64,000 nt of DNA from Candidatus Latescibacterota bacterium. GTDB taxonomy: Bacteria; Latescibacterota; UBA2968; GCA-2709665. Shown here in pieces: positions 20,235 through 56,001 of this stretch (positions are counted from its first letter, which is position 1; the number at the start of each line of letters is the position of its first letter). The notes beneath the pieces were generated by a model, which searched no databases, had not been told where the DNA came from, and saw only the letters and a list, made by a program, of their open reading frames with translations. A program made the translations under genes and the position numbers. The stretch covers positions 3,968,001 to 4,032,000 of the forward strand of contig OZ244937.1 of assembly GCA_965222075.1 (NCBI GenBank). The letters run 5' to 3'.

Positions 20235-20268
20235 CCTGCCTGCCGAGCATCCATCCGGCGCAGGCAGG
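20235..20268. mobile_element. Short CCTG...CAGG hairpin element (34 bp), intergenic
   Basis: cctgcctgccgagcatccatccggcgcaggcagg between G and T; same termini as the elements inside the IS4. Confidence 0.75.
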
Positions 20269-20309
20269 TCTCCGGGTGGTCTGTCGTGTGTGGTCTAACA
20301 GCCTCTCAC

Positions 20310-21074
20310 TCAAATCAACCCCCACAACCGCCTCCGCTCCTCGCTCCACCCCTCCCACTCCCCGGCAAAAACGTGCTTCACCGCCTCAAGGTCCCGCTTG
20401 CGCCCCCCCGGTGGAAAATAATTCCAGCCCATTGCCCGCCGGGGCCCCGCAGCCGTCTTCACCCCCGTCGCATGCCAGCAGCTTGGCGTCCACACCAGCG
20501 ACCAGCGGGGGTCCAGCACCACCTCCACCTCGTGCGGATGCCGTGCGAACATCATCCTGGGCGGACGATCGTGCTGTCCGGTCGCCAACTCCAGCTGCCG
20601 CAACTCTTCTTCCACCTCTGCTTCGGGCCTCAGATGGCTCCCCGGTAGAACCCGCAGCGGCGCATTCGTCGGATCGTGCCGGTCCAGCGCCGTCCGTATC
20701 GATACCTGCTTTACCTCAGGGCTCCCGTCTGCGTGCCAGTGCACCTGGCGCTGGGGCCGTCCGTCCTCTGCAATCGTCCCGGAGGCGTCCCCCAGCCCGC
20801 AGGCCCCGATATGCACTTCGTCACAGTCCAGAATACGCCTGGCCGCATCCACCAGATCCGGCTGTTCGATAAGCTGCAAAACCGGTTCACCAACCATAAA
20901 CAGCTGGCAGGCCAGCCGGTTCAACCCTTCAGGCCAGTCCGTCTGCTCCCACTGCGCTTCGATCTCGCGCTGAATCGAGTCGACCTGATGCATCTTTTCC
21001 TCGCCCAGCGGATTGGGAACCAGAAAAAACCCCTGCCGGTGAAAGTGTTCAATCTGTTCGTTCGTTATGTCCAT
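20310..21074 (-). CDS. Phytanoyl-CoA dioxygenase (PhyH) family protein
   Basis: FHRQGFFLV, HWHAD, LRVLPGSH, WHA. Confidence 0.85.
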   Translation of the reverse strand: MDITNEQIEHFHRQGFFLVPNPLGEEKMHQVDSIQREIEAQWEQTDWPEGLNRLACQLFMVGEPVLQLIEQPDLVDAARRILDCDEVHIGACGLGDASGTIAEDGRPQRQVHWHADGSPEVKQVSIRTALDRHDPTNAPLRVLPGSHLRPEAEVEEELRQLELATGQHDRPPRMMFARHPHEVEVVLDPRWSLVWTPSCWHATGVKTAAGPRRAMGWNYFPPGGRKRDLEAVKHVFAGEWEGWSEERRRLWGLI

Positions 21075-21189
21075 TCGTCCCCCAGGGAAAGCATGGCTGA
21101 ATTTTTTTGGAGTTAAACCTAAAGAGACAGTTTCACGTGAGCAGATCTCTCTAACAGCAACTTCTCAGTATTTAATACAGCACGGGCTG

Positions 21190-22329
21190 TCAATCTGTCT
21201 GCACCAGCCGCCCTGCCCTCACGGTAGCCAGCGGCTCCCAGCATCCCCCCGGCCGTTCGACGTCCCGCACATCGCGCAAGCGTCCCTCCTCGTTCCAGTG
21301 CAACACGGCCAGATCGGCACAGGCGCCGGCGGCCAGCGTGCCGGCCTCCCCCTTCAGCCCAAGCAGCTCCGCCGGCCGTGCGGTAGCACGCGCCAGGACT
21401 TCGGTTTCCGGCATGCCGGCGGCGATGAACTTCGATATCGTCCTCGGCAGATCGTGCGGCGGGTCGCTGCCGATATGGCGGTTGTACTGATCGGTGGAAA
21501 CGGTGTGGGGGTAAAACCCCTCGGCGATGGCGGGCTCGGCGTGGGCAAAGCTGAAGGACTGCATGCCGTTACAGCCGTCGAACAGAACCCCCCGCTCTTT
21601 CGCCTCCCAGACTGCTCGCCGGACCTTTCCGTCGGCGATGATGTTGTCTTCGAGGAAAGCGAAGGTGTAGGTGACGAGGTCGCCCGCCCGCAAATGGAGC
21701 AGCTGCTCCTCCAGGGGGAAGTCCCTGTTGAACCGCGGACCGTACAGGATGGGACGCCCGCTACGCTCGGCCGCTTCGATCCCCCGACGCATGATCTCTC
21801 TCGGGTCGTGGGTGACGGCCGGATTGTGCATGGTGTTGAACGCGATGCCCCAGATCTCCTCTCCAGCTGCAGCGATCGTGGCGACGCAGAGACCGACGTC
21901 GGCGTTTTCGAGGTGCTCGAAACAGTGGCCCGCCTGCGATTCGCCGTATTTCGACAGGTGCAGGGCCAGTCGCACCCGGGTGCGGCAGGCGTGGATGACC
22001 TCGTCGTGATAGGCCGGCCAGTTGAGGGCGCCGGCGTCCCCCTGCGACATGCAGGTGGTAACCCCGCGCGGCAGGAAGTGCTCGTCCGGATTGACGCCGT
22101 ACCGCGAACCGCCTCTGGCCGGGTGAGCGTGCATGTCGACCAGACCGGGGAGAAGCAGGGCGTCGGGGTAGTCCAGGCTCTGCGATGCGGTCCCTGAGAC
22201 GTCGGGGCCGGCGGCGGCGATGCGGTCACCGCACACGGCGACGGCGCCCGGGCCATCCAGGCCGGTCTCGGCGCAGAAGATGCGACCGGCCGAAATCAGC
22301 AGATCATACGAGTCGGTTGTCCCGGACAT
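21190..22329 (-). CDS. Amidohydrolase/deacetylase family metallohydrolase (dihydroorotase-like)
   Basis: PGLVDMHAH, GVTT..SQGDAG, VSTD and GACADLAVL. Confidence 0.85.
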   Translation of the reverse strand: MSGTTDSYDLLISAGRIFCAETGLDGPGAVAVCGDRIAAAGPDVSGTASQSLDYPDALLLPGLVDMHAHPARGGSRYGVNPDEHFLPRGVTTCMSQGDAGALNWPAYHDEVIHACRTRVRLALHLSKYGESQAGHCFEHLENADVGLCVATIAAAGEEIWGIAFNTMHNPAVTHDPREIMRRGIEAAERSGRPILYGPRFNRDFPLEEQLLHLRAGDLVTYTFAFLEDNIIADGKVRRAVWEAKERGVLFDGCNGMQSFSFAHAEPAIAEGFYPHTVSTDQYNRHIGSDPPHDLPRTISKFIAAGMPETEVLARATARPAELLGLKGEAGTLAAGACADLAVLHWNEEGRLRDVRDVERPGGCWEPLATVRAGRLVQTD

Positions 22330-22394
22330 GGATCGTTCCTCATTCGTGGCCCCGCCAAGCTCGACGGCACCGACACGGCCGCGACCTCACAATC

Positions 22395-23421
22395 TCAAGA
22401 AGAAAGCTCTACGTTAGATGGCCTACTCTTGCCCTCGCAAAAATACATCGCCTTGAACCGTTCCATTTGTTTGATTTTGTCGATCAGCACGCGTTCCTGC
22501 TGTGAACTCGCCACATTTCGAACCAGGGACCTGGCATCCACCTCGGTCAATCGCAAAACGAGATAGTTGGCGATGGCCGAAAACACCGAGACGTGGAAGT
22601 CCCGCGCCTCTTGCGAGGCGAGCACCAGCGAGATGCCGTATTTCCGGCACTCCTTGGCCATGGTAGGAATGAGTTTGAGGCCAGCACCTCTCCCGCCTCC
22701 CGGCTGCCCTCATCGTCCCGTCCCGCGAACAAAACAGACAGGCTCGCGCACAACGAGTACACATCGGAGCGACGATCCGCTGCCCCGAGTCCTTGGGCAC
22801 GCACTTCGGGAGCAATCGCATTGTCTCCTTCGTCTTCTGCACTGCTGGAGACCGCCACCGTAATATCGTCGGGAATCCGGGCGTGTTGGAAACCAGTCAG
22901 GATCGGTTCGTTGTCGTGCTTGACGAGAACCGTGCCCGGCGTGAGGTTCCGGTGCAGCATGGGTTCGCCATCCTCGCCCGCTTCTGCCACGCTTTCAATG
23001 TGTGGAACCGAACGCCGCGGACAGCCCGGCCCTCAAGCAGCTTGACTTTCGCGGCATCCTGCGTGACCAGGAATACCCCATCCACCCGACCGAGTTCCGA
23101 GATAATCCGGCGCAATGTGGTACCAACCTTGCGTGCCTTGTCCGTTAGGCACTCGGCCTCGCGCTCCACAAGTTCGGCGTTGCGCTTCACCCAAGCCGCG
23201 GTCCAGTGCTTGACCTCAATGACCCGCACCCCGGGCGGGCCGATGGCGACAATGTCGATTTCGTCGGATTGTCGTCGGTGGGTGGCGGAAAACACGAGAT
23301 TTGTCAACAGCAGCCACTCGCCATCGCCCAATTCGGAAATCAAGCCCGACTTAAGCCGCCCAATGGCCTTCTGTTCGCTGTCGTTGGCCACAGGCCCGCA
23401 GTTAATGAGGGTTACCTTCAT
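22395..23421 (-). pseudogene. Collapsed defence-like locus: NERD nuclease N-terminus, Ser/Thr kinase fragment and C-terminus of a HerA/FtsK-type ATPase
   Basis: EIDIVAIGPPGVRVIEVKHW (NERD); HRNLTP...APE...SDVYSL (kinase); ECRKYGISLVLASQ (HerA/FtsK-type motif). The three pieces are joined in different frames. Confidence 0.7.
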
Positions 23422-23455
23422 GCAGAGTTACCTTTCTCCCCTAAGGTTTTGGGAC

Positions 23456-23580
23456 TCATGCGCTCCAAGGCGGGGTGACGATCTCATACTTGGGACCGCT
23501 GACACGGCTGAGTCTTCTGTCCAACGTCAGCAGTGAACAGTTGCACTCCTCAGCCCCAATGCTACGTACCAAGCATCGTA
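23456..23580 (-). pseudogene. C-terminal fragment of a VapC/PIN toxin
   Basis: YDAWYVAL, then (after a frameshift) AEECNCSLLTLDRRLSRVSGPKYEIVTPPWSA*, a typical VapC C-terminus. The 5' part is replaced by IS630 sequence. Confidence 0.65.
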
Positions 23581-23990
23581 ACCCGAGGCGATCGACGCAC
23601 AATGGAAAGTAGCGCCTTTTTTGCCTGTGACGCGTCTGGATACTCAGGGGGAAAAAGCGGGTTTACGTCCCCGCCCAGATCGAATCTGTAACCCTGAGAT
23701 CCCTTCGGCCTGGTAACGATTTACCCACTCACCTGCCTGTGCGTGCGGGGGCACGCACGCAGATTCAGGTATATCGTGTCTTTACGTCGCTTTTTTAATA
23801 ATCCCCTTTGGGCTACCTGCCTGCGCCAAGCGGAGCGCGGCAGGCAGGCCTGACGGCCTGACATCCCAGAAGCAATCTTTAAAATCGCACAGGCACGTTC
23901 ACGCATATACGGCTTGTCCGAATGGTCGCGGGCCTGTTCCACTTCGCTGCTTTGCTCTGCTGTCAACGAAATCCTCAGTATTTTAGGCAT
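23581..23990 (-). mobile_element. IS630-family transposase remnant (N-terminal HTH) disrupted by two hairpin insertions
   Basis: Removing 23816-23848 and 23732-23769 gives MPKILRISLTAEQ...RERACAILKIASGMSGRQVAQRGLLKKRRKDTIYEWVNRYQAEGISGLQIRSGRGRKPAFSP, an IS630-type HTH region ending at a T5C5 run. Confidence 0.8.
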
Positions 23991-24119
23991 CAGATCACCT
24001 CCTTATACTGAGGATACAACATCTGAACGCTTATAGCACGATTATTTTTTTAATCTTCATAAGGCCGGGGCTTTTCTCCCGATTCGTGGCCCCGCCACCG
24101 CGATTTCCAAAGCCCTGCA

Positions 24120-24175
24120 CCACCCGCATTCATTCCCGTCCACAGGACGGGGCATTATGCGAGATATTCGTAAAA
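24120..24175. repeat. IS200/IS605-like end or short MITE remnant
   Basis: cgcattcattcccgtccacaggacggggcattatgcg imperfect hairpin; the family assignment rests on resemblance only. Confidence 0.35.
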
Positions 24176-24250
24176 ATATACGACTGCTTGACTGAGAAAC
24201 CAACCGTTTTCAATACCACAGGAGAAACACCTACCAGGCCTCGCCCGTCT

Positions 24251-24360
24251 GAGAAGCTGTTTTAAAATTCCCGGTGAGTTCCCCAGCGTGAGGGGCGCGC
24301 AGCGCAGGCAAGCGTTTTTGCAGCCGCGCGAAGACCGCTGGGGGTTTTAAGACAGTTGTC
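24251..24360. mobile_element. Putative ~110-bp MITE
   Basis: Imperfect terminal inverted repeats gagaagctgttttaaaa / ttttaagacagttgtc enclosing a GC-rich core. Confidence 0.4.
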
Positions 24361-24369
24361 CTGCGCCCT

Positions 24370-24800
24370 TTGGGGCACCCATTATGATGAAAATAGTTGC
24401 GTTGACAGACTTGTACTGTAACCGTCCATGCCCGCTCACACGTTTCGCCTCTGCGATCCCCCTCCCCACCGGCCAGGTATCGACCACTGCGGGTTGGCGC
24501 CCCTAACTTGCCGACTCCCCCGGTCTGGTGCGGGGGGAAGGGGCTTTTCCGCGCAGATCCCCCCAGCACCATCGCCCAACAACGCCCAAAAGGTCCGCTG
24601 GGCACAAACGCCTGCTTCCACCACAGGGGCAGTTCGCGGAAAAGCAGCCCCCGCGGCGTCTGAGCGGCCTGCCTGCAGCGCGGTGCGCCGCGCAGGCAGG
24701 CGCCCTTCTTTTTCGGCCTTTTTCTTGGGCGAACAAGAAAAAGGCCAGGAGTAAAAGAACAGTTGGACCTGGGTATCTGTTATTTTCCAAGCAGTTTCTA
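24370..24800. repeat. ~430-bp structured non-coding repeat element, copy 1
   Basis: Aligns by eye with 54067-54456 plus 56010-56057; ends in the hairpin ggcctttttcttgggcgaacaagaaaaaggcc followed by ...tattttccaagcagtttct. Confidence 0.85.
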
Positions 24801-24971
24801 AAAGACGTTCTACAGGACTACCCCGGAATAGATGGCCGATGTTCGGGAGGTGGCGCTGCAGATCAGAGAGGACCACGGGATCAAGCTGGCCGGGTGGTAG
24901 TATACGGATATTGGTCTGCTCAACGCTGTGTTTGAAGAAGGGGCGTTTGACCTTGCGCGGGGAAAAACTTC

Positions 24972-25000
24972 TTGACTGTTTCCACAAGATGTAGTATTAT
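24972..25000 (+). promoter_or_regulatory. Sigma70-type promoter of smc
   Basis: TTGACT-17 bp-TATTAT upstream of smc. Confidence 0.55.
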
Positions 25001-25198
25001 ACAAAAGATCCTGTGAAATGTTTGCGCAACCTGTTGCGTTTTAAAGATTTTCCTCTGGGATCCCCTTCCCCTTCTTTTCCCCTCGATTCAGACCGGAGGT
25101 ATCTGTGGGTAAGCGCCTGGCAACCATCCAGGCGTTCCACAGGGCCAAATTTCCACACATTTGTACGTCTCTCCATCATGATTTCAGGAGGATTTCTC

Positions 25199-28100
25199 TT
25201 GCACCTTTCTCGCCTTACGGCCTTCGGTTTCAAGTCGTTTGCCCAGAAGATGGATCTGACGTTTGGGAAGGGGATTTCCTGCGTGGTGGGTCCCAACGGC
25301 TGCGGGAAGTCGAATGTGGTGGATGCGCTTCGCTGGGCGCTGGGCGAACAGCGGGTGCGGTCGCTGCGCAGCCATTACATGGAAGATGTGATCTTTTCCG
25401 GGTCGAGGACGCGCAAGGCCTTAGGGATGGCCGAGGTGTCGGTGACGATCGACAATTCCGAGAACCTGCTCCCGGTGGATTTTTCCGAGGTGACGGTGAC
25501 CCGCCGGCTGTTCCGGTCTGGGGAGAGCGATTATCTGCTGAACAAGATCCCCTGCCGGTTGAAGGACATCCAGGACCTTTTCATGGATACGGGGCTGGGC
25601 GCTTCGCACGCCTATATCATCGAGCAGGGGATGGTGGACGAGATCATCAGCGACAAGACGGAGGAGCGGCGGCGGGTTTTTGAAGAGGCCGCGGGGGTGA
25701 CCCGGTACAAGGTGCGACGCAGGTCGGCCTGGAACAAGCTGCAGTCGCTTCAACAGGATTTGCAGCGGATTTCGGATGTGATCGCGGAGGTGGAGCGGCA
25801 GGTGGCGTTGCTGGCGAGGCAGGAGCGGAAGGCCCGGCTTTTCAAGCAGCTGACAGACCAGCTCCGGGAGATGGAGGTCCAGCTTGCGCGCTACCGGTAT
25901 TTTGAGATGTCGGACCGCGCCCGGCCGATGTTAGAGGAGATGACCTTTCTCAAGGAGGATGTTGAGGTCGGGTCAACAGATATCGTCCGGTTGGAGGCGA
26001 GGCTGGAAGAGGTCCGTGCCGAACTCACGGCGCAGGACCAGGCCGTGGCCACGGCCAACGCGGAGGTGGGCCGGCAGGTGGAGGCGGCTCACCGGAAGGA
26101 CCGGGAGATCGTAGTGGCCCGGGAGGAGGCGCGGGGTATTGAAGGGTTATTGACCCGTGCCGCAAGGCAACAGGAGGTGTTGAAGGAGCGGCAGGAGGTG
26201 GCCCGGCAGGGGCAGGAGGCGGCCCGGCAGGGAGAACAGGAGGGGAGCGAGGCTCTTAAGCGGGCAGAGGCGGCGCTTTTAGAAGAGACCGGGACGCAGG
26301 AGGCCCTGCTGGCGGACTTGGAGGCCCGCCGTGGGGGGGCGGATGAGCAGAAGGCGCGCCTTATTGGGATGCACCAGGAGATCAGCGAGGTGCGCGGGCG
26401 GCTGGAGCGGGCGCGGGCGGAGGTGGAGGGGTTGTCTCACCGGCAGGCGAGGCTGGGGGAGGATGTGGCCCGCGTTCGGGCGCGGCGGCAGGAGGCGGAG
26501 GGGGCGGCCGATGCGGCGGCAGGGCAGATCGCAGACCTGGAGCAGGCGCTGGAGGAGCGGACTTCCCTGAGGCGGGTGCACACCGAGGCGCGGGACCGGC
26601 TGCAGGCGGAGCGGGACGGGCTGGTGGAGGAGCGCAATAGCCTGCGCACCCGGATGGAGGCGGACGGCGCCCGGTTGGCGCTTTTAGAGAAGCTCCGCGA
26701 GGGATTTGAGGGCTATTCCCGGGGGGTACGAACGCTGGCCGTAGACTCTCCCTTTTCGGATCGGATCAAGGGGGTTGTGGCGGATCTGATCGATGTGGAT
26801 CCGATGTACACTTCGGCGATCGAGGCGACGATGGGACGGGCGCTGGAGTGCCTGCTGGTGGACACGACCGCGGATGCGGCGGAGGCGATGGCCTATCTGC
26901 GGTCCAGCGCGCACGGCGCGGCGGCGTTTCTGCCTACAGAGCGGGTGGCGCAGGGCAACGGCATGCCCTGGACGCCTCCGGTGGGGGAGGGGATTGTGGG
27001 CCGGGCGTCGGATCTGCTCCGGGGGCCTGCAAACGGCGCGGCGCGGTCCCTCTTGTGCCGGACGCTGGTGGTGGCGGATGTGGAGGCCGCGCTGCCTTTA
27101 ATGGCGCAGATGCAGACGATCGGGGTGGATATTGCGACGCTGGACGGGGAGGTGCTCGCCGCCGATGGCACGGTCTACGGCGGGGTTGCTGTGGGCGAGG
27201 AGACCGGGTTGATCGGCCGGGCGGGGCAGGTCGAGATGCTCTGGGCCGATCTGGAGGCGGGCCGGGCGGGGCTGGAGGCCTTTGGGGCGGATATCTGTCG
27301 GGTTGGGGAAGCCACAGCCAAAGCAGCGGCGCAGGTTGAAGCCGATGACGGGGCCCTGGCTGACTTGCGCAACCGCCTGGTCGGGCTGCAGCGAGACCAG
27401 CAGAACGCGAGCGCCGAGGCCAAACGGCAGGGGGCCGCCGATGAGGAGTTGCACGGGGAGGCGGCCTGGCTGAAGGAGCGGGAAGCCGAGCTTCGCTGCA
27501 CGGTTGCAGAGGGAGAAGCAGGGCTGGAGGCCCTGGAGGCCCGGCGCAGCCGGCTGGAAGAAGAGGTCCGGCAGGCGGACGAGGCGCTCCGGGAACAGGA
27601 ACGCAAGCGCCGGGCGCAGCAGGATGCGGTTTCTGCGCAGCAGGTGGAGATCGCTACGTTGGGGGAACGCGTTGAGAACCTGCACCAGGAGGCGGCCCGG
27701 CTGGCGCAGGCGCAGACCGACCTGGGCCGGGAGATGGAGCGGCTGGCTTTGGAGTGCGCCGAGAATGAGGCGCGAAAGGCCGACCTGGGAGAGGTGGTGC
27801 AGTCCGCTTCGACGGAGTTGGAGGCCCTCCACAAGGTGCAGACCGAGTTGGAGCGAAAGCGGGATACGCAGGTGGAGCGCCAGCAGGAGCTGATGGTGGG
27901 GGCCCGCGAGCTGGAGGAGAAGGACCGGGAGGTGGGGAGGCGGGTGATTCGGAACCGGGAGCGGCTGCGCGAACTGGAGGTGGAGATGGTGCAGCTGAAG
28001 ACCCGTGCGGAGGAGCTGCAGGAGCGGATCAAGCGCGACCATGAGGTGGATATCAAGGAACTGGGACGGTTTGAGGACCCGGAGTTCAACGCCGATATTA

Positions 28101-28804: not shown

Positions 28805-28841
28805 AGGCAGGGAAAAGCAACCACCGATGTGTACAGATGTC

Positions 28842-28910
28842 GTAGGGGCGACCGGCCCGGTCGCCCTTACTATTTTCTGCCTGCTTGCCGACAAGGCAGG
28901 CGCAGGCAGG
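28842..28910. repeat. GTAG-type REP-like palindrome followed by a degenerate or nested CCTG...CAGG hairpin
   Basis: gtaggggcgaccggcccggtcgcccttac, then ctgcctgcttgccgacaaggcaggcgcaggcagg. Confidence 0.6.
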
Positions 28911-28922
28911 TCGAGGGACGTG

Positions 28923-30395: not shown

Positions 30396-30415
30396 AAATA
30401 CAACCGACCCCTGGA

Positions 30416-31252: not shown

Positions 31253-31566
31253 GCCAGGGCCTCATTCGGGATCAGTGCGTCCGCTGCATCGGGCTGTCGT
31301 CTTTTAGCACGCCGCGCCATTTCACGTGGAGCCGCAGGCGCGCCAACGCGCTCCCCCCCTCCCACTGCTTTCGTCTCCCCTTCGGAGCGGTAGCAGGTGG
31401 GATCGTCGGAGGAGGAATGCGCGCCCATTACAAATTTAAGCAAATTCCTTTCCGTTTTAAACCGATTCATACGGGGTGTCAAATCTTTTCTGGACAATTC
31501 TGGCATATTTTGAGATTTTAGGAAGGGCTGTAGTGGGGTGTGCACCCTTTAGCCTCAGGAGATGTG

Positions 31567-33305: not shown

Positions 33306-33334
33306 AAACAACTGAACGCTGATCCGGAGGCGAG

Positions 33335-40835: not shown

Positions 40836-40839
40836 TACT

Positions 40840-42543: not shown

Positions 42544-42655
42544 AGGCAGGGATCAGGGTGGGGGCGCACGGCCGTACGCCTGCCTGCGATCTGCCTGCTG
42601 AAATTGTTCAGGGAGTTATACAGACGGATTCACAACCACCAAGGAGGGATAACGA

Positions 42656-44660: not shown

Positions 44661-44740
44661 ACAGCTGCGAGTCGTGAGTTGTGAGCAGCGAGTGGCGGGG
44701 TGGCGGTAGGTATTTCCAGAGTTTCGGTAAGGAGCGTTGG

Positions 44741-45949: not shown

Positions 45950-45975
45950 TTTCACTTTATTTTTCGTGAGGCGTT

Positions 45976-46569: not shown

Positions 46570-46684
46570 GACAGTCGCGGGTCACGAGTCTCCCTTCCCT
46601 GACCCCGGGCAGGCACGGGTGGGTGGGGTGGAAACTTGTGACTTTCGACCCGCGGCTCGTGAGTTGAGGAAGGAGTTCCGAAAA

Positions 46685-48352
46685 TTGGACGCTGACGGTT
46701 CCGGAAACGGCAGAGCAGGTCGCCGGAGCGAGATCGGGGTGATTACGAAGGGGTCGCTGACGGAAGGGGTGGAGATGAAGCTCAACCCCGACCGGAGCGT
46801 GGAGGACGTGAAGGCGGGGAAGTTCGTGGTGATCGAGGGGTTCAAGAATGAGTTTTTCTCGATGATTACGGATTTGAGCCTGGATGCGACCAACCCGGAG
46901 ATCCTGCTGTATCCGCCACACGATGGGGACCAACTCCTGCACAGCGTGCTGAACGGGTCGAGTACGTACGTGACGGTCTCCCTGCGGCCGATGCTGATGC
47001 TGGAAAAGGGGGAGCGGGTGGAAGATGACCACCGGCCGGTGAAGACGATTCCGAGCCATTTTTCCAAGGTGGTGGAGGCCGAGGAGGAAGATGTGTCCCG
47101 GGTGTTCGGGAGCGAGGCGAGGGATGCGCGGTATTTTAATATGGGGACGCCCTTGGATATGGAGACGCCGGTCTGCGTCAATCTGAACCGATTCGTGGAG
47201 CGGAGCAACGGGATCTTTGGGAAAACGGGTACGGGGAAGTCGTTTTTGACGCGGCTGGTGCTGTGCGGGCTGATCAAACAAAAAAAAGCGGTGAACCTGA
47301 TTTACGATATGCACAACGAGTACGGGTTCCAGGCCATGCAGGAGAGCGGATCGGGGAAAGGGGGGTTTGTGAAGGGGCTGAAGCAGCTCTTCGGCAACCA
47401 GGTGGCGCTGTTTTCGCTGGACCCGGAGTCGACGCGGAAGCGGGGACAGCAGCCGGACCACGAGGTCTATATTTCCTACAACCAGGTGGCGGTGGAAGAT
47501 GTGATCGCGCTTCAGGACGAGTTGCAGCTGAATCCAACGGCGGCCGAGTCGGCCTATCTGGTCTACGCGATGTACAAGAACCGCTGGCTACGGCAGCTGC
47601 TGTCGGTGGACGGGCCCGATATCGAGCAGTTTGCCGAGGATCTGGGGGCGAATAAGAGCTCGCTGTCGGCGCTGCACCGGAAGTTGAAACGGTTCGAGAG
47701 TTTTCCCTTTATGGTCGAGCGGCTGGACGGGTCCGATGCAGTGGATACGATGATGGACTACATCGACCGGGGCATTCACATCGTGCTGGAATTCGGGCGG
47801 CAGACGAGTATGCTGGCCTATCTGCTGGTGGCCAATATTATCTCCCGCCGGATCCACGAGAATTACGTGCAGAAGAGTGAGAGGTTCTACGCGACGCAGG
47901 ACCCCAAAGACCGGCCCCGGCACCTGGTGATTACGATTGAGGAGGCGCACAAGTTCCTGAACCCGGCTGCGGTCAAGCAGACGATTTTTGGCACAATCGC
48001 CCGGGAGATGCGGAAGTATTACGTGTCGCTGCTGGTGGTGGACCAGCGGCCGTCGGGCATCGACGAGGAGGTGCTGTCGCAGCTGGGGACGAAGATTACG
48101 GCGCTGTTGAACGACGAGAAGGATATCCAGGGGGTGCTGACGGGAGTATCGAACGCGGCAGGCCTGCGCAGCGTGCTGGCAAGCTTAGACTCGAAGCAGC
48201 AGGCGCTGGTGTTCGGGCATGCAGTGCCGATGCCGGTGGTAGTCCGCACGCGGGACTACGACGAGGCATTTTACAAAGCGATGGGAGACGTAGACGACCA
48301 GGAGAAGGCGGCGCAGGGAAAGGCGGCGGCAGCGGAGGTGTTCGGGGACTGA
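46685..48352 (+). CDS. herA: HerA-type ATPase/helicase (HAS barrel plus DUF87)
   Basis: GIFGKTGTGKS, DMHNEY, ITIEEAH, IAREMRKY and VDQRPS; start uncertain. Confidence 0.88.
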   Translation: MDADGSGNGRAGRRSEIGVITKGSLTEGVEMKLNPDRSVEDVKAGKFVVIEGFKNEFFSMITDLSLDATNPEILLYPPHDGDQLLHSVLNGSSTYVTVSLRPMLMLEKGERVEDDHRPVKTIPSHFSKVVEAEEEDVSRVFGSEARDARYFNMGTPLDMETPVCVNLNRFVERSNGIFGKTGTGKSFLTRLVLCGLIKQKKAVNLIYDMHNEYGFQAMQESGSGKGGFVKGLKQLFGNQVALFSLDPESTRKRGQQPDHEVYISYNQVAVEDVIALQDELQLNPTAAESAYLVYAMYKNRWLRQLLSVDGPDIEQFAEDLGANKSSLSALHRKLKRFESFPFMVERLDGSDAVDTMMDYIDRGIHIVLEFGRQTSMLAYLLVANIISRRIHENYVQKSERFYATQDPKDRPRHLVITIEEAHKFLNPAAVKQTIFGTIAREMRKYYVSLLVVDQRPSGIDEEVLSQLGTKITALLNDEKDIQGVLTGVSNAAGLRSVLASLDSKQQALVFGHAVPMPVVVRTRDYDEAFYKAMGDVDDQEKAAQGKAAAAEVFGD

Positions 48353-48516
48353 CCTGATGACAAGCGCTCCAGGTGAGCACTCTCCGGCAACGGAGTAGTC
48401 AGGGGGGCGCTTTTTTGGGGCAAGGTGTGCCTCTGTCCTCCGAATCCAGGTGCGTGGACAGCATTTATTTTACAGAAGGATAATTTAAACAGGAGCCGAA
48501 CAACCCTCTTCTCCCC

Positions 48517-49290
48517 TCATTCAGGTCCGGCCTTGTCCAGCCCGGGAAGAAGCACATATTTGACCCAGCCGAAATTCGGATCGATCTCGAGGGCCTTCTC
48601 AAAAGCCGCTCGCGCCAGGGCACCTTGATCCTGGTCCAGGTGGGCAATTCCCATCCAGGCGTAGGTCTCGCTGTGCCCCCAGACCGGCTGGAGTGGATCG
48701 GTTGGCCTTTCCCGGGCAAAGAGCGTCGCTGCCCGTTTGAATCCTTCCATCGCTTTTTCTTTGTTCCCTCCCCACATCCTGGGGGTGTTAAAATCGCCGA
48801 TGGCTGCGGCCAGCACCACGCGCGGATTGTCGGGGGCGAGCTGTTCGGCCTTCTCAAATGCCCGGCTCGACCTGGGTCCCAGCAGGATACCTTTTATAGG
48901 ACTCAAGCTGATTTGCCGTCCATAGACGCTGGAGAGCAGGGCATAGGCTTCGGCGGCTTCTGCATCGAACCGGGTCACCGTTTTCAGATGCTCGACGGCG
49001 CCTTTGAGGTGTGTGGAGGCCTGGTCTTTGTGGTCCTTTCCCTGATTTAACAGGAAGTTGGCGATCCGGTAGTCGGCCAGGGCCGTGTAGTAGTGGGCCC
49101 ACGCGGCCCGGAGGGTATCGGCGGTGGCACGTTCAAAGGTCGCCCGGGCCGCGAGCATCCGGTCGAGATCTTCCCCCCTCATCCCCGCTTGTAGCATCTG
49201 TTTTCCCCTGATAAGTAAGGTGTCAGCGGATTGTGCCAGAGCAGGAGACACGAGAGCGAGGCTGAGAGCGAGGAGAAGTAGACGTCTCAT
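48517..49290 (-). CDS. Secreted TPR protein
   Basis: Signal peptide MRRLLLLALSLALVSPALA; TPR-like helices. Confidence 0.8.
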   Translation of the reverse strand: MRRLLLLALSLALVSPALAQSADTLLIRGKQMLQAGMRGEDLDRMLAARATFERATADTLRAAWAHYYTALADYRIANFLLNQGKDHKDQASTHLKGAVEHLKTVTRFDAEAAEAYALLSSVYGRQISLSPIKGILLGPRSSRAFEKAEQLAPDNPRVVLAAAIGDFNTPRMWGGNKEKAMEGFKRAATLFARERPTDPLQPVWGHSETYAWMGIAHLDQDQGALARAAFEKALEIDPNFGWVKYVLLPGLDKAGPE

Positions 49291-49335
49291 AGGCGTTCCT
49301 CCGAGTGGATGGACGAGTTTCAGGTGCGGGGTGGC

Positions 49336-51564
49336 TCAACGGTACAGATTGAAGGTAGCACCGAAGTAAACGGATCGGCGGAAGTAGGTCACGCGCGGGC
49401 GGCGTTCGGTATAGTCAATAGCGTAATCGTAGTCAAGCACATTGGCGCGGTTGAGCAGGTTGTTGATGGCCAGGTAGAAGATAGCCTGGTGTCCCTTCCC
49501 GAATGGAAGCAAATAGCTCAGACTCACATCCAGCCGGTGGAAGGGGGGCAGGCGCTCTGAGCCAATGCGGCCTTCGACAGGCAGGTAGTAGCTTCTGCCT
49601 TCTACGGGAACAGCATCCGTGACCGGTGTGATCGGACGCCCGGTGGCGTGTTTCAGAGTAAAACCGCCGCTGAGAGCGTCCGCCAGCCGCATCTTCGCCA
49701 CAAGCGTCAGGTTGTGCGTAATATCGAACGGCGAAGGAGCTTCTTCGTAGCGCACCGCATGCCCCAGGTGGCGGGGCTGCACCCGGCGCGACCGGAGCAG
49801 GCTATAGGCCACCCAGCCGTTGAAACGCGTGCGGAGGAAGCCGCCGTACTTGATGAACAGGTCCACGCCGGATGCCCTGCCTGTGCCGCCATTCGTGAAG
49901 TTTAAATCGGGGTGATCGAGGATCAGGTTGCGGTAGGGTTTGTAATAGGCCTCCAGTCGCATCATAATCTTATCGCGCTCGTGGTTCAACCCCGCGACCC
50001 AGTGTTGTGCGCGTTGGGGCCCCAGGTTGGGATTGCCGCTCGTGGCATCGTATTTAAACGGAGAGGGGAATTGGTGATAAATCCCCCAGCCCAGCCGCAG
50101 GTCCGTGTTTTTGGAGAACGGGTAACGCGTGGACAAACGCGGATCAACGACGAACCGGCCGGCCAGGGTGTGATGATCCGCACGAACTCCGGCATTGACG
50201 GCGATGCGGTGTGCGGGTTTGAAATCGACCTCGAAGTAGGCGCCGGTACGCTTCGCACCGTAGGAGATATTTAGTTCAAAGACCTCCGCTTGTGGATCGA
50301 GAATATCTTCCCGATAGGGTATCGTACCGAGAAATTGGTTGCCGATGTGCTCTATCTCAGCGCCGAAGCGGAGGGTTGCACGCGCGCTGAGGGCGCCTTC
50401 CAGATCCGCGCGAAATTTTGCGGTGAGATCGCCAGGCTTCAAGTCCAGATTGCCCAATTGCCGCCGCGCGGTGTAGCGGTTGAGCGAGGCACTGGTCTGG
50501 ACGAGCCAGTCCCCGAAGATATCGGTCCATTGGAGATTGTGAAGCCAGCTGGTGGTGCGATTCTGGTAGAGGCCTTCAAACGAAGGCTCGTCCACCCGCA
50601 CGCCCAATCGATCGTCCGTGTTAAAGCTGAAGAGCTTAAGACGTCCGGTAGGAGAGTACTGGTAAACCAGGTTGAGGTTGCCATCGTAGGCTCTTGGAAA
50701 GATGGTGAACTCATGGCGCTGGCCGTTGACGCGAAAGAGAAGGTCGGTGAAGCTGAGGTTGCCCGTGAAGCGCAGGCCGAATTTATCGGGGACGATAGGC
50801 GCATCGAAACCCAGAGAGCCGGCAGCCAGGCCGAGGTTGAGCGTATAGCGAGTTTGGCCGGGCAGGTTCTGGCTGTCCATCGCCAGCACGGCCGAGAGGG
50901 CGTTTCCATAACGTGCGGGGAAGCCGCCCGTAGAGAAAACCGTCCCCTTTACCATAAAGGGAGAAATGGTGCCGAATGCGCCTCCGGTGGGCGATTCGTA
51001 CTTGTAAGGATGAGTGACGGTGGCCTGGTCGAGCAGGATGAGGGTCTCGCTCACGTCACCGCCGCGTACGAACAAGCCGGCACCTTCGTCCACCATCGCC
51101 ACACCGGGGAAGGTCTTAATGGCCAGAAAGATATCGGCGGCGGCACCGGGAGTCGTAACGACATCCAGGGGAGAGAGGGTGACGGTCTCGGCCTCGCCGG
51201 TGGAATAGGTACTCGCGATGACGAAGGTCTCGCCCAGTTCAATGAGGGTTCTACGCAGCACTAAACGAACGGCCACGGTATCGCCGGGCGACAGGTGCAG
51301 GCTACGTCGGGCGGGTTCAAAACCAATAAAGGTGGCACGCAGCTCGCGTTTCCCCAGGTGTCGGGTGGCGAACCTGAAGCGGCCGTTGCTCCGCGTTACG
51401 GCGCCGTCGGTGGTGCCGATGATCTGCACGTTGGCAAAAGCCAGTGGCTTTCCCTTGCCGTCTACAACTTTTCCCTGTACGATCGCCAGGCCCTGTGCCT
51501 GGACGGCCAAAGGAAAACAGGCGCAGAAAAGGAGGAGAATCAACACAAACGTATTGTACTCCAT
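49336..51564 (-). CDS. TonB-dependent receptor with N-terminal carboxypeptidase regulatory-like domain
   Basis: Signal peptide, GKVVDGKGKPLAFANV, plug LFVRGG...STGGFPARYGNALSAVL, beta-barrel C-terminus. Confidence 0.9.
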   Translation of the reverse strand: MEYNTFVLILLLFCACFPLAVQAQGLAIVQGKVVDGKGKPLAFANVQIIGTTDGAVTRSNGRFRFATRHLGKRELRATFIGFEPARRSLHLSPGDTVAVRLVLRRTLIELGETFVIASTYSTGEAETVTLSPLDVVTTPGAAADIFLAIKTFPGVAMVDEGAGLFVRGGDVSETLILLDQATVTHPYKYESPTGGAFGTISPFMVKGTVFSTGGFPARYGNALSAVLAMDSQNLPGQTRYTLNLGLAAGSLGFDAPIVPDKFGLRFTGNLSFTDLLFRVNGQRHEFTIFPRAYDGNLNLVYQYSPTGRLKLFSFNTDDRLGVRVDEPSFEGLYQNRTTSWLHNLQWTDIFGDWLVQTSASLNRYTARRQLGNLDLKPGDLTAKFRADLEGALSARATLRFGAEIEHIGNQFLGTIPYREDILDPQAEVFELNISYGAKRTGAYFEVDFKPAHRIAVNAGVRADHHTLAGRFVVDPRLSTRYPFSKNTDLRLGWGIYHQFPSPFKYDATSGNPNLGPQRAQHWVAGLNHERDKIMMRLEAYYKPYRNLILDHPDLNFTNGGTGRASGVDLFIKYGGFLRTRFNGWVAYSLLRSRRVQPRHLGHAVRYEEAPSPFDITHNLTLVAKMRLADALSGGFTLKHATGRPITPVTDAVPVEGRSYYLPVEGRIGSERLPPFHRLDVSLSYLLPFGKGHQAIFYLAINNLLNRANVLDYDYAIDYTERRPRVTYFRRSVYFGATFNLYR

Positions 51565-51577
51565 AGTTATGATGGGA

Positions 51578-53275
51578 TTAACCACCATCCAGCCCCGGCA
51601 GCAGAACGTCTCTCACCCAGCCATTGTCAGGGTTCACTTCGAGCGCTTTGGCAAAAGCTTCCCTTGCTCCGTCGACATCGTCCTCCCCTTGCCGAATGAT
51701 TCCGAGCCAGGCGTAGACTTCGTCGTGGCCCCAGGAGGGCAGACGGGGATCGCCGACCTCCTGTTTTGAGAATAGCTCAGCAACTCGTTCGAGCTTCTCA
51801 ATGGCCCGTTGCCTGTCTCCTCCCCACATTGGGGGGGTATGATAGTCGCTCATACCATCGAGAAAGACGACCCGGGGATTATCACCCTCTATCCGCTTGG
51901 CCTTTTCAAGAACGCTCTTTGCTTGAGGCCCCAGCACCATGCCCAGGTGAGGCTTTAATCCTATTTTGTGTCCATAGACACTGGCCAGAAGGGCGTGAGC
52001 GTCACTGAAGCTGTCTTCCAACTCAATCGCCTTCTTGAGGTGATCGATAGCCTGGTCGATGCATGCCAGACGTGTGGTCTTATCGTTGGACTGAGCATTG
52101 AATAGTGTGGCCAGGCGGTATTCGGACAACCCAAGATAGTACAAAGCAAATGCCTCGTGCTCCCCATTCTGTCTGACACGTTCAAAGAGCTTCTGCGCTT
52201 CATATATCTTATCAATATCCGATTCATTTATCCCCGCCTGGAGCAGATCTTTCCCTTGAATTAAGAGAGAATCAGACCCTTGCTTCTTTTCAAGATGCCC
52301 GTGGCTGTAGCGCATATATCGCCTTCCTGTGGCTAACAGGTACACATCTTCAAGATCGGCGGATCGTACGGCGAACTGTTTTACCCCAAGGTCTCTCACC
52401 CGCTTCACTACCGACTCTTCGAAGCCCTCACCATTGCCATACACGCAGGTCCTCCGGGAGCTTAAATCGACATGCGTCACCCCAGGACAATCCTCCAGGG
52501 CTTCGGGACTGACCTCGGCATTTATCTCTACTTTCAGGTCTAACTGAAACCTCTCGAGAAGCTGTTGCACCGATCCCGAGGCAATAATCCGGCCGCTATT
52601 CATAACGCAGATCACATCGCTTTGCTGTTGCGCTTCCTGCATGTTGTGGGTCGTCATAACAATGGTAAGACCTTGACGGCGGTACTGGTCCAGGATCTCC
52701 CACAGTTCCCGGCGCAAATGCGGGTCCAGGTTGCTCGCCGGCTCATCCAGGATCAAGAGCGCAGGATTGCCCACCAGTGCAATGGCAATGAGAAGTCTTC
52801 GCCTTTCCCCTCCCGACAGGTCTTTGTAGGCCGTTTTCTGCTGTCGCTGCAACTCGAATACATTGAGTAACTCACCGGGATCAACAGGATTTTCGTACAT
52901 GCTCGCATATAGCCGCAAAGCCTCATTGACCCGAATATCAGCATAAAGGGAATCCTCCTGAAACTGGATGCCAATCCGACGCAGCAGATCCTTGCGACGC
53001 AGCAGATTATGGGCGAGTTCGCCAAATAAGAACACATCTCCGAGGTCGGGCTTTTTCAATCCAACGACACAATCTATGATGGACGTCTTACCGGCGCCGT
53101 TGGGACCAACCAGGCAGAAAACCTGCTGTGGGTATACGGCAAAACTGACGTCACTGACGGCGACGAGTTTGCCGTAGGTCTTGCGCAGTGATTTCACTTC
53201 TAAGACGGGCGATATCTGATCTCTACAGCCGTCGTCTGAGCCCAAAGTGCTCCGGGTGGGTGGTGTTGAGGTCAT
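51578..53275 (-). CDS. ABC ATP-binding protein fused to a C-terminal TPR domain
   Basis: GPNGAGKT, LSGGERRR and LILDEP, then DSLLIQGKDLLQAG...WGHDEVYAWLG, paralogous to the TPR protein at 48517. Confidence 0.8.
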   Translation of the reverse strand: MTSTPPTRSTLGSDDGCRDQISPVLEVKSLRKTYGKLVAVSDVSFAVYPQQVFCLVGPNGAGKTSIIDCVVGLKKPDLGDVFLFGELAHNLLRRKDLLRRIGIQFQEDSLYADIRVNEALRLYASMYENPVDPGELLNVFELQRQQKTAYKDLSGGERRRLLIAIALVGNPALLILDEPASNLDPHLRRELWEILDQYRRQGLTIVMTTHNMQEAQQQSDVICVMNSGRIIASGSVQQLLERFQLDLKVEINAEVSPEALEDCPGVTHVDLSSRRTCVYGNGEGFEESVVKRVRDLGVKQFAVRSADLEDVYLLATGRRYMRYSHGHLEKKQGSDSLLIQGKDLLQAGINESDIDKIYEAQKLFERVRQNGEHEAFALYYLGLSEYRLATLFNAQSNDKTTRLACIDQAIDHLKKAIELEDSFSDAHALLASVYGHKIGLKPHLGMVLGPQAKSVLEKAKRIEGDNPRVVFLDGMSDYHTPPMWGGDRQRAIEKLERVAELFSKQEVGDPRLPSWGHDEVYAWLGIIRQGEDDVDGAREAFAKALEVNPDNGWVRDVLLPGLDGG

Positions 53276-53277
53276 TT

Positions 53278-54051
53278 CTATACCTCCCACCTGAATGTTC
53301 TTAAGGAAACCAGGTATGCCAGTACAGTAATTCCCGCAAGAAACAGCAATGAGTTCACATGCTGAGAGACCGGGTCTCCGAGCCAGATACCGGAGAAGGT
53401 CTCTACGACATGGGTCAAAGGAGAAGCGTTGCTCAACTTCTGCAACCATTCCGGAAACAATTGCCGAGGAAAAGTAGCCCCTGATATAAAAAACATGGTG
53501 AGAAACAGAAATTTGCCCAACGCCTGGATGCTTCTTGGGGATTTAGATAGCCCACTTACAAAGAAGCCCAGAGCGAAAAAGCACGCGGTACAGACTACAG
53601 CTACGAACAGAACAGGAGCCCAATGCCCACGAAAATTGATATCAAAGACACATTCTGCTACAACAGCCAGGATCAATGAAGATATCACTAAAACGACAAA
53701 TTGGACCGCAGCGTGGGCACAAAGATAGCTCCCAAGTGAGACGGGGCTTACGACGTAACGCTTTAGAACGCCAATCTGACGGTAGGAAGCCAGAAAGTGG
53801 GTTAGATTGACAAGGCCGGCTTGTCCAACGTATGCTGCCATTAGCGCAGGTGCATAAAAATCCATATAGCGCAGGTCAGAGTGGTCCCACAGAGGAGAGT
53901 CCCCAAAAAGAGAACCGAATAATAGAAAGAGCAGTACAGGGAAAACGAAGGTAAAGAAGGCTGCTACCGGTTGACGAAGGAACAATTTGCTCTCTATAAC
54001 CCACAGCGTAAAGAAGCTGCGAAACCATACGCTTCTACCAGAAGATGCCAT
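53278..54051 (-). CDS. ABC-2 type permease
   Basis: FFTFVFPVLLFLLFG, FFISGATFP and SPLTHVVE; six TM segments. Confidence 0.88.
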   Translation of the reverse strand: MASSGRSVWFRSFFTLWVIESKLFLRQPVAAFFTFVFPVLLFLLFGSLFGDSPLWDHSDLRYMDFYAPALMAAYVGQAGLVNLTHFLASYRQIGVLKRYVVSPVSLGSYLCAHAAVQFVVLVISSLILAVVAECVFDINFRGHWAPVLFVAVVCTACFFALGFFVSGLSKSPRSIQALGKFLFLTMFFISGATFPRQLFPEWLQKLSNASPLTHVVETFSGIWLGDPVSQHVNSLLFLAGITVLAYLVSLRTFRWEV

Positions 54052-54456
54052 CTTAGCCAGAATCCTATTGGGGCACCCATGATGATGAAAATAGTTGCAT
54101 TAACAGACTTGTACTGTAACGTCCGCCGTCCGTACACGCCCTCTCACGCGTTTCGCCTCTGCGATCCCACCACCACCACGCCTGCCTGTCTGCGTGCGAC
54201 GCACAGGCAGGCGGGCTGGCGCCCCTAACTTGCCGACTCCCCCGGGTTGGTGTGGGGTGAAGGGGCTTTTCCGCGCAGATCCCCCCAGCACCTGCGCCCA
54301 AAAACGCCCAAAAGGTCCGCAGGGCACAAACGCCTGCTTACACCACAGGCGCAGTTCGCGGAAAAGCAGCCCCCGCGGCGTTTGAGCGGCCTGCCTGCAG
54401 CGCGGTGCGCCGCGCAGGCAGGCGCCCTTCTTTTTCGGCCTTTTTCTTGGGCGAAC

Positions 54457-56001
54457 CAGTAGTTTCCGGTTAGGATTTTGCAGAGGGGAGACAGCGAGGT
54501 CACAGAAGGCTTGATAAAAGGCGCTCTCCATGAAAGATTAGAGTTGTCAGTAAAAGACTCTACCCTTTCAAAGGAGGTGCCCATGTCGATCCTGTCCTGT
54601 TCCCCACTGTCTCCCATGGTAGAAGAAAAAGGATTTCCTAAAGGATCGCCAACATTTTCTGTCCTGCTTGGGCCTTTGGAAGCTTGCTTACCTTATCTGA
54701 CTCCGTTGGAATCAGGTAGCAACAAGCCGTTGACTTACACGTTTGCGCACCTGTCTGCGTAAGGAACGCACAGGCAGGTCAAATTCGGGGCTTAGTGTAT
54801 TATCATACAGAGACTTGCACGCCTGCCTGCCGCGCCGAACGCGGCGCAGGCAGGTCTGCTCAGGATCTGCTTTTCGCGGCAAGATGTGACCTGTCTGCGT
54901 GCAACGCACAGGCAGGTGGGTTTGTGAACCGATTGCTGGTGCCCCCATCAGGTCTTGGTAAGAGCACTTTTTATGAAGCCAATGCCAGTCGGGGCAGCAC
55001 TCAGATGATCGAGTTGGTGGACCTGTCTGCGTGCAACGCACAGGCAGGTCGACTTTCTAAGAAAGCCGCCAAATGCGTAGGCCGCTCTTACGCTGAGCTT
55101 GGCCATTTGGTGGTCATCGACGGGAGCCTGATTGGTGCGTGTTTGTCCATGACCTGGGCAGACGTATCTTGGAGATGTGCGCAAGGCCAAGATGCACTTA
55201 GGCTTGGATCTTTCCGGCTCGATTCCAAGAAAGATGATCCTGACCGAAGGGAGAGGCGCGGAAAGACCGTTTGTCTCTCATCTTCTAAAAGAAGGTGAAA
55301 CCGGCGTTCTGGATCGGGGCTACCAGGACCATCAGCGGTTTGATGCCTGGATTGCAGAAGGCAAGCACATAGTGGTGCGCTTGAAGAAGAACACCAAATG
55401 GGAAGTCATAGAAGCCCTACCATTTGAAAAAGGCACATCTATCTTCTTTTTTTCCAAAGTCTTACTGGGTGATCCCGTGCACAGGATGACCCATCCAGTC
55501 TACCTAATAGGCTTCGAAAGTCGAGGCAAAACATACTGGATCGCTACCGACAGAGAGGACCTGACCGCAGAGCAAATCGCCTTCATTTTCTCGCTTAGAT
55601 GGCAAGTTGAAACCTTCTTCGCCTGGTGGAAAAAGCACCTCAAGGTCTATCATCTCACCTGCCTGTGCGTTGCACGCTTGCCTGCGCGCAGCGCGCAAGC
55701 AGGCAGACAGGTCTCCAGAAACCCTCACGGTGTCCTGGTGCAATTGCTTTCTGGACTGATCACTTATCTTCTGTTGGTGATCTATTTCCATCAACGCTAT
55801 GGACAACGGCCTTGTGTGAAATATCTGCGACAGTTGAGATGGGATATCCGACATGAAACCCAGCCACCGACCCTTGTGCATATCTACCTGGTGATACAGA
55901 CCTGCCTGCGCCGCAGCGCGGCAGGCAGGCAGATACGCGGTTATCTCCACTGATTTTCCTATGGCTTTTGAACCCAGCAATTTTCTAACCGGAAATTGCT
56001 G
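54457..56001 (+). mobile_element. IS4-family insertion sequence, inactivated
   Basis: TIRs cagtagtttccggttag / ctaaccggaaattgctg; 8-bp TSD GGGCGAAC at 54449-54456 and 56002-56009. Confidence 0.92.
54583..55988 (+). pseudogene. IS4-family DDE transposase interrupted by 7 hairpin insertions and one +1 frameshift
   Basis: Motifs IDGSLI, DRGY and RWQVETFFAWWK. 1406 nt minus 199 nt of hairpins minus 1 nt = 1206 nt, i.e. 401 aa plus stop. Confidence 0.9.

Follow-up and report, generated by a model that had tools for sequence, protein, structure and literature searches.

Single hairpins of about 30 nucleotides with CCTG ends as miniature mobile elements in a Latescibacterota genome

Here we describe a family of short hairpins dispersed through the genome of a Candidatus Latescibacterota bacterium (G000; one contig, 5.36 Mb, 59% G+C). 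The family was recognised in a 64-kb window of that genome (G000:C1:3968001-4032000). An earlier note on the window had proposed a minimal non-autonomous mobile hairpin that inserts precisely and without target-site duplication, and this proposal is borne out by empty sites at both orthologous and paralogous positions. Whole units, nested composites included, have entered new sites without duplicated or lost bases. We are confident that the hairpins are real miniature mobile elements, and this is the core of our explanation. Copies were identified with a strict pattern, CCTGYCTG-N8-25-CAGRCAGG, which gives a lower bound on copy number.

Nine strict hairpins in host genes of G000 were compared with G001, a genome of the same genus at 92-95% nucleotide identity, and six of the sites proved to be exactly empty in G001. 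Two of these sites, filled in G000 by a nested composite of 60 nt and by a 36-mer, lie in the gene for a UvrA-like protein; the others are those of a 33-mer in the gene for PurL and of the hairpins at 1234911, 1244684 and 1989356. Their junctions read G|T, A|T, G|C, A|T, G|C and G|T, with no base gained or lost. As for the remaining three, the site at 1990253 is too diverged to score and those at 1230589 and 1992294 have no match in G001. The UvrA-like and PurL insertions are missing from more distant genomes as well, the latter from 21 of the 21 other genomes of the family, and are therefore gains in the G000 lineage. PurL contains two insertions, 13 nt apart, and the hairpin-encoded peptide coincides with a gap position in the alignment to human PurL (9n9w). 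When the hairpin loci of G001 were considered, at least 4 of 13 were also filled in G000, the others having one conserved flank or none. One locus filled in both genomes is the intergenic 34-nt hairpin at 20235-20268 of the window (junction G|T), through which L188 aligns at 95.5%.

Within G000 itself, paralogous flanks without the hairpin exist for nine hairpins. Clean empty junctions were obtained at 3444509 (A|A) and 931620 (T|T), and the empty sites at 2492929, 3208606 and 4022390/3405284 read G|C with a 1-nt ambiguity. Moreover, the window contains a 54-nt composite (55658-55711, minus strand) in which an outer 27-nt hairpin encloses an inner 27-nt hairpin (CTTGCCTG...CAAGCAGG; 55677-55703), the latter sitting at a G|C of the outer copy. 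The composite recurs at no fewer than four other places in the genome at 96-100% identity. As it recurs whole, the moved unit is defined by the outer ends. The hairpins were also found in Logan contigs from four runs of four studies, some of these runs being labelled sponge metagenome or metatranscriptome. The whole composite is skipped in contigs of X1 and X4, in one X13 contig nothing but the inner 27 nt is missing from it, and the 33-mer at 54390 is skipped in contigs of X1 and X2. The joints are marked 'between: not known' and so are given supporting weight only; the sequences are assembled contigs rather than raw reads. Lastly, 28 of 214 neighbouring pairs in G000 lie within 200 nt of one another, with no preferred distance. 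The mobile unit is a singlet hairpin and not a doublet.

The strict pattern gave 11 matches in the window, compared with none in 100 dinucleotide shuffles. Ten of these are distinct, 54181-54211 being a longer reading of 54185-54211. Together with direct reading of 23732-23769 and of the nested pair, they account for all 13 copies listed in the earlier note, whose two subtypes, in both orientations, and purine|pyrimidine junctions (13 of 13) were likewise recovered. A degenerate member that it placed near 28877 is a real member of the family (28877-28911, directly after an SMC gene); for a second, near 42579, we could recover a half-site but not a full hairpin. Hairpins had also been assigned to two transposase genes. 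One such gene is present, with a Pfam DDE_Tnp_1 match at 55177-55953, whereas the ORFs (open reading frames) at ~23.7 kb have no transposase match. The hairpins of that second region lie at 23732-23769 (38 nt, a T-variant with a degenerate 3′ end; junction A|T) and 23816-23848 (33 nt; A|C). They are adjoined by a fragment of a NERD nuclease domain (22897-23421, minus strand), in a region that had been read as transposase.

The DDE_Tnp_1 gene belongs to a degraded insertion sequence (IS) that is single-copy in G000 (54560-55990, plus strand) and holds seven hairpins. Besides the nested pair these are three T-variants on the plus strand, each at an A|T junction (54750-54778, 29 nt and containing a TAA; 54890-54916, 27 nt; 55022-55048, 27 nt), a 33-mer at 54822-54854 (G|T) and a 29-mer at 55901-55929 (A|C). 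The IS is inserted in or next to a copy of a ~430-bp repeat of which the genome has dozens, and some metagenome contigs skip the IS (joints 54444 to 56002). That repeat copy (54069-54460) carries a 27-nt T-variant (CCTGTCTG...CAGGCAGG; 54185-54211, plus strand), with an extra CCTG just before it, and the 33-mer at 54390-54422 (G|C with a 1-nt ambiguity). Many paralogues of the repeat are without the second hairpin, and 24 left/right match pairs were recovered as empty paralogues of its site. The other window copy of the repeat (24370-24737) contains a 33-mer at 24668-24700 (G|C).

As had been described, the hairpins combine an asymmetric bulge with a variable inner stem-loop. DNA folding of the commonest variants gave an outer stem of 7-8 bp, a one-sided bulge of 2-3 nt and an inner stem-loop that varies. 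The outer stem of the T-variant holds a T.G pair, which on the other strand becomes C.A. Both this pair and the one-sided bulge speak for an element read as a single strand.

Genome-wide, the strict pattern gave 226 raw and 215 non-redundant copies, whilst a backward-read control pattern gave none. Copies range from 24 to 39 nt with peaks at 27 (n=50), 30 (n=19), 33 (n=93) and 36 nt (n=13), such that 178 of 215 have a length that is a multiple of three. Moreover, 194 of the 215 contain no stop codon in any of the six frames; among shuffled elements 41% are stop-free in this sense, and among random 33-mers 24%. The length bias is seen in dereplicated intergenic copies too (60/83, p 6e-13). When a fixed pairing scheme was laid over all 33-mers, 78% of inner-stem cells were paired, compared with 16-52% for slid partners, and few double changes were seen; we make no formal claim of covariation because the subfamilies use different registers. 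Also present are altered-end variants, a 21-nt short form and (YCTG)n arrays. Such (C/T)CTG tetranucleotide arrays lengthen the 5′ ends of hairpins (for example G000:C1:319697-319747) and look slippage-like at the element ends.

Clustering of copies by their flanks reduced the set to 158 dereplicated sites, one cluster of 30 copies being a single insertion amplified by the ~430-bp repeat. An R|Y junction is found at 120 of the 158 sites against a baseline of 23%. The proposed purine|pyrimidine target is thus a strong preference and not a rule, given the clean A|A and T|T sites. Across 69 sites that could be oriented by a T-variant, position -1 is A in 46 and G in 18, position +1 is T in 44 and C in 21, position +2 is never T and position +4 is G in 57. 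The target motif is therefore one-sided, R|Y-S-G-G on the strand reading CCTGTCTG...CAGGCAGG; on the opposite strand the element lies 3′ of C-M-S-R, which is similar to its own last four bases, CAGG. Neither GTAG nor CGTC appears in the flanks. The motif predates insertion, because empty orthologous sites carry it (for example GTGTA|TCGGTC). Strand bias relative to transcription is weak.

We then looked for the family in other genomes, where the counts are to be read with two qualifications: kin genomes are not independent, and copies are undercounted in fragmented metagenome-assembled genomes (MAGs), since they lie at the ends of contigs. At least one match was found in 69 of 168 genomes of the phylum. 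Only nine genomes have 64 copies or more, eight of them from family f1 together with G024 of family f2, and within a single genus the counts run from 0 to 222. A wider genome scan returned many chance palindromes; 17 of the 120 matches listed lie within 3 mismatches of G000 variants. The same is true of a viral scan, with 26 of 79. Five MAGs from outside the phylum, titled Verrucomicrobiota (2), Desulfarculaceae, Planctomycetota and Methylomirabilia, carry 5, 11, 28, 36 and 27 copies. Each has its own dominant inner stems, so that across hosts the ends are conserved and the inner stems differ yet remain self-complementary. Moreover, a viral contig with portal, capsid and Mom genes (L271) has three copies (2466-2495, 4137-4163 and 11109-11141), one of them inside an 811-aa capsid-fusion ORF that stays open.

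The elements encode nothing and therefore must be moved in trans. No Y1 or REP-associated tyrosine transposase (RAYT) gene was found in the window, in keeping with the statement of the earlier note that no mobilising enzyme is encoded there (REP, repetitive extragenic palindrome). The chemistry is most plausibly single-stranded and HUH/Y1-like: a folded single strand would be cut and rejoined by an HUH-Y1 enzyme, for which the best candidate is the RAYT subgroup encoded at 3.242 Mb of G000, and phages carrying copies could seed new hosts. Three relevant genes, all outside the window, were found in G000: an IS200-like TnpA, a broken Y1 fragment and an intact RAYT. The latter (3242104-3242871) has an HUH motif and a candidate catalytic tyrosine, and matches the TnpA-REP 4er8 by profile at 9e-10. 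Against NCBIfam REP_Tyr_transpos it scores 55.6 bits (cut-off 80); a relative in G021 scores 104.

A profile of this RAYT subgroup recovered full-length genes (E <= 1.5e-73) in 10 of the 22 genomes of family f1. These 10 have 15-226 hairpins, whilst the 12 without the gene have 0-21 (one-sided Mann-Whitney p 8e-5, uncorrected for kinship). On a PurL tree the RAYT label changes at least four times, and the RAYT-bearing side is the richer in each sister contrast: G000 with 226 against G001 with 21, G003 with 131 against G007 with 3, and G019 with 136 against 0-19 in its seven-genome sister group. The RAYT gene of G000 lies on a 1.5-kb segment (G000:C1:3241466-3242984) that is missing at the orthologous G001 site. 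This segment comprises two small toxin-antitoxin-like ORFs, the RAYT gene and two GTAG-type repeats, and the RAYT ORF carries an in-frame copy of its own repeat. Taken as a whole, an explanation in which the hairpins are REP-like single-hairpin elements moved by HUH-Y1 chemistry, with the RAYT as candidate enzyme, is the one that we favour, at about even confidence. For the HUH/RAYT step taken by itself our confidence is a little below even.

Several observations weigh against the part of this explanation that concerns the enzyme. None of 12 RAYT loci has hairpins on both sides and one has an adjacent hairpin; the RAYT genes are instead bordered by their own GTAG-tagged repeats, unrelated in sequence to the hairpins, which have no GTAG tag. 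According to passages of PMC3479197, the Escherichia coli RAYT requires GTAG. Two RAYT subtypes with different cognate repeats both accompany high copy number, and genomes poor in mobile DNA of every sort contribute to the RAYT correlation. In G024 (one contig, 97% complete), where 94 hairpins were counted, the subgroup is absent (best match 5.9e-6, partial) and the IS200 elements are broken fragments only. Among the five MAGs of other phyla, a RAYT match better than 1e-20 was seen in only one. As to an IS608-like mechanism, the target signal covers both sides of the insertion point, and orientation relative to replication, with origin and terminus placed from GC skew alone, is weakly biased (41:28 dereplicated, p 0.15).

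The same observations speak for an agent other than a RAYT or Y1 enzyme, be it an unrecognised nuclease or recombinase or host replication and repair acting after seeding. Patchy copy numbers would then record the history of invasion, for example by phage, and not the presence of an enzyme. The abundance of hairpins in G024, which has neither a subgroup RAYT nor an intact Y1 gene, would follow, as would the independence of the hairpins from RAYT borders and GTAG. In addition, MAGs whose titles name four other phyla carry the family, as does a true phage contig, and COG1943-like matches in the five other-phylum MAGs are merely distant in three and absent from one. We take this alternative seriously and consider it to have a minor, if substantial, chance of being right. 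The conserved ends and specific target argue against it in favour of a sequence-specific enzyme, and copy number follows the presence of the RAYT subgroup in three or more sister contrasts. Moreover, no alternative enzyme was found. Generic Y1_Tnp (PF01797), TnpB (PF07282), IS110 (PF01548), reverse transcriptase RVT_1 (PF00078) and DDE_Tnp_1 (PF01609) all fail to track copy number, and TnpB, IS110 and RVT_1 had no match in G000 at the thresholds used. A search of G000 for a long autonomous element with hairpin ends and an internal gene found only pairs of separate hairpins.

Further candidates were set aside. The IS200-like TnpA of G000 at 2071937 has end hairpins of its own, unrelated to the family. 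The MAG G172, reached via L020, contains ten copies of a distant RAYT-like ORF of ~340 aa, which may be a separate tyrosine-transposase element; no CCTGYCTG was found within 1.5 kb of the two loci examined. Among the f2 relatives (G022-G040), TnpB is found in 15 of 16 genomes of genus g6 and is absent from G024, the sole hairpin-rich genome of that genus, and from nearly all of f1. A complete RAYT-like HUH domain was also seen in frame in ORFs for DUF1156/D12-type DNA methyltransferases of 1203-1441 aa (L126:14978-18685 in G021; L127:2995-7317 in G003, which has two copies; also in G002 and G020). These adjoin genes for a SNF2/NOV_C helicase and AAA_15 and have the look of a defence island. 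The methylase orthologue in G000 is without the HUH insert.

Host genes are frequent carriers of the hairpins. Coding sequences (CDS) were called with our own codon-usage gene finder and are not a curated annotation; it predicts 3645, covering 84% of G000. Of the 215 copies, 84 (39%) lie wholly within a CDS, 3 lie across a CDS end and 128 lie outside. The earlier observation that no intact hairpin occurs in host genes therefore holds for the window only. Hosts confirmed with Pfam include the UvrA-like protein (1922 aa, with three hairpins at two sites), PurL, two AcrB-family pumps, a UvrD-like helicase (two hairpins), HsdR, an ABC exporter, FeoB, a xanthine-dehydrogenase subunit, a penicillin amidase, a hydantoinase, BamA, two NtrC-like regulators (two and four hairpins) and a Ser/Thr kinase. 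The ORFs with in-frame hairpins are intact and have full sets of Pfam domains. Lengths that are a multiple of three are commoner among CDS copies (79/84) than among intergenic ones (96/128; p 3e-4). The first and last deciles of the protein hold an excess of CDS copies (18/84 and 14/84), and the codon phases of such copies are distributed 46/23/15, the LPA...AQAG frame being favoured over the Cys-containing frames. In-frame copies persist in working genes, where they add 8-13 residues, because of these lengths and their stop-free frames, and such insertions are mostly near protein ends or in loops. Copies that break the frame persist nowhere but in intergenic DNA, dead IS and repeats, and accumulate there. 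The family is in this way adapted to a genome dense in genes.

It had been proposed that the hairpins are aimed at mobile DNA, whether because they parasitise transposons or because they silence IS for the host. Nine of the 13 window copies do lie in IS or repeat DNA. With 1500 random positions as the reference, dereplicated sites reach 0.5x the expected density in CDS that is unique and 0.9x in CDS that is repeated; in non-coding DNA the values are 2.8x for unique and 5.5x for repeated sequence. The excess of repeated over unique non-coding DNA is thus only ~2-fold (25 vs 61 clusters against 43 vs 205 random positions; Fisher p 0.03), and 72 of the 158 dereplicated sites are within CDS, mostly of unique host genes. 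Raw counts are inflated by hitch-hiking, as in the 30 copies that represent one site in the 430-bp repeat. Moreover, the target motif is short and generic, and the hairpin number of a genome does not follow its IS load, there being 89 DDE_Tnp_1 matches and 2 hairpins in G004 but 1 match and 131 hairpins in G003. Preferential targeting is unneeded to account for these data. The signs of purifying selection in CDS explain the distribution left after dereplication; relaxed selection and hitch-hiking, with perhaps some local hopping, suffice for the excess in dead IS and repeats. Nothing was found in support of silencing, and a weapon for breaking genes would call for the reverse of a stop-free design in multiples of three. 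We therefore regard a device directed at mobile DNA as highly improbable. The family is of the kind of REPs and Rickettsia palindromic elements (RPEs), not a transposon-directed device.

No more credible is the idea that each hairpin is made up of the two terminal inverted repeats of a DDE-type IS, set end to end, and depends for its movement on the transposase of that IS, as a very small MITE (a miniature transposable element with inverted repeats). Both the size (~2 x 13-16 nt) and the form, that of inverted repeats, would be compatible with this, and hairpins are frequent within IS copies. Against this, target-site duplication is absent at all reconstructed sites and the ends match no parent IS. 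The terminal inverted repeats of the IS at 54560-55990 are unrelated to the hairpin ends (CCTGCCTG), the host IS families differ (DDE_Tnp_1, UPF0236 and DUF772), DDE_Tnp_1 load does not track the copies, and no full-length element with hairpin ends was found in G000. Finally, immobile hairpins with a host function (as terminators, protein-binding sites or RNA-stability elements) or an assembly artefact are almost certainly not the explanation, even if REPs elsewhere have such roles (passages of PMC12306157 and PMC3733652) and the hairpins are GC-rich and stable in DNA folding, given their presence or absence at otherwise conserved orthologous positions, the 39% inside CDS, a placement that is not terminator-like (6 of 83 in convergent spacers against 16% expected), the absence of any match to an Rfam family in the window and the independent contigs from four studies that contain them. 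Some individual copies may have been co-opted by the host.

In kind, the hairpins are known already, being small palindromic repeats that insert in frame. They resemble REPs in being dispersed, non-coding palindromes in many copies, imperfect and 20-40 nt long, with a bulge or mismatch. G000 also has a RAYT gene, whose subgroup tracks hairpin number within family f1, though not in G024 of f2. Passages of PMC3479197 and PMC3733652 hold REP mobility to be single-strand HUH-Y1 movement without target duplication, and passages of the former describe a stem bulge or mismatch as required for binding by the E. coli RAYT. Unlike REPs, which in sections of PMC3733652 are sorted into GTAG- and CGTC-tagged superfamilies, the hairpins have neither tag, and both of their ends are conserved and mutually paired. 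The REPtron arrangement is absent, the RAYT not being bordered by CCTG hairpins. Moreover, REPs "seldom overlap" coding regions according to passages of PMC12306157, whereas more than a third of the hairpins do so, with no enrichment downstream of convergent genes.

The intragenic elements are a second point of comparison. Di Nocera et al. (2013, PMC3733652), in the sections on such elements, report that repair genes of Opitutus terrae and Rickettsia conorii, uvrA and uvrD among them, contain REPs in frame. The elements concerned (RPE-4 and RPE-6 with CGTC, those of Opitutus with GTAG) are, like the hairpins, in-frame palindromes that leave the gene intact, and repair genes are hit repeatedly in both cases, here in the UvrA-like and UvrD-like genes. 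The ends differ, and the hairpins are shorter singlets; RPE-1, for one, is 100-150 bp (in the part of PMC3184786 that describes it). For the hairpins we document orthologous sites that are exactly empty, a target motif, nested copies and, across the family, a bias towards stop-free multiples of three. REPINs, too, are short non-autonomous RAYT-linked repeats that evolve within genomes, according to passages of Bertels and Rainey (2011, PMC3116915). The unit inserted here is a singlet, with no preferred spacing of pairs. In work on REPINs, by contrast, a doublet of two inverted REPs is reportedly held to be the replicating unit, and singlets are said to be regarded as immobile remnants of doublets.

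What is generally known of the IS200/IS605 family, IS608 included, offers further parallels: there is no target duplication, the ends are hairpins and a short tetranucleotide target, here degenerate and with a signal that reaches across the insertion point, resembles the 3′ end of the element. The present elements differ in having one hairpin rather than two different ends, no internal transposase and a weak replication-strand bias. The small dispersed repeats (SDR) of Nostoc, attributed to Elhai et al. in 2008, are said to be 21-27 nt long, with mobility argued for them, and to occur nested within other repeats as well as inside ORFs; host phylum and sequence differ. HIP1 is not enriched in G000, which is therefore no typical cyanobacterium. 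No described family of CCTG-ended repeats was found in the literature searched, which did not cover subscription journals, and the supplementary lists of intragenic REP peptides in PMC3733652 may contain related families. The present family is distinct in four ways, namely its new ends, the documented insertion of singlets with their target, its coding-compatible design and its occurrence across phyla and in phage.

In summary, movement of REP-type repeats has so far mostly been inferred, whilst these singlets of ~30 nt give exact filled and empty orthologous sites, nesting and a target motif. They offer a clean natural data set for tests of single-strand transposition, in which substrate and target are both defined and a RAYT stands as candidate. 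They are also a steady source of protein insertions of 8-13 residues that persist inside essential genes. For annotation, the hairpins break short-read assemblies and add odd Cys/Arg/Ala/Gln-rich peptides to predicted proteins. More tentatively, we hypothesise that they may represent cross-phylum, phage-carried, translation-proof single-hairpin transposons of ~27-36 nt, whose sole fixed features are the 8-nt ends and the fold and which would be moved by a GTAG-independent enzyme, either a RAYT of new specificity or a class not yet linked to transposition. If so, no bacterial mobile DNA for which insertion events are directly documented would be smaller, and the hairpins would be a natural generator of short peptide insertions, repair proteins included. 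Moreover, their occurrence in phage and in several titled phyla suggests a wider, overlooked class.

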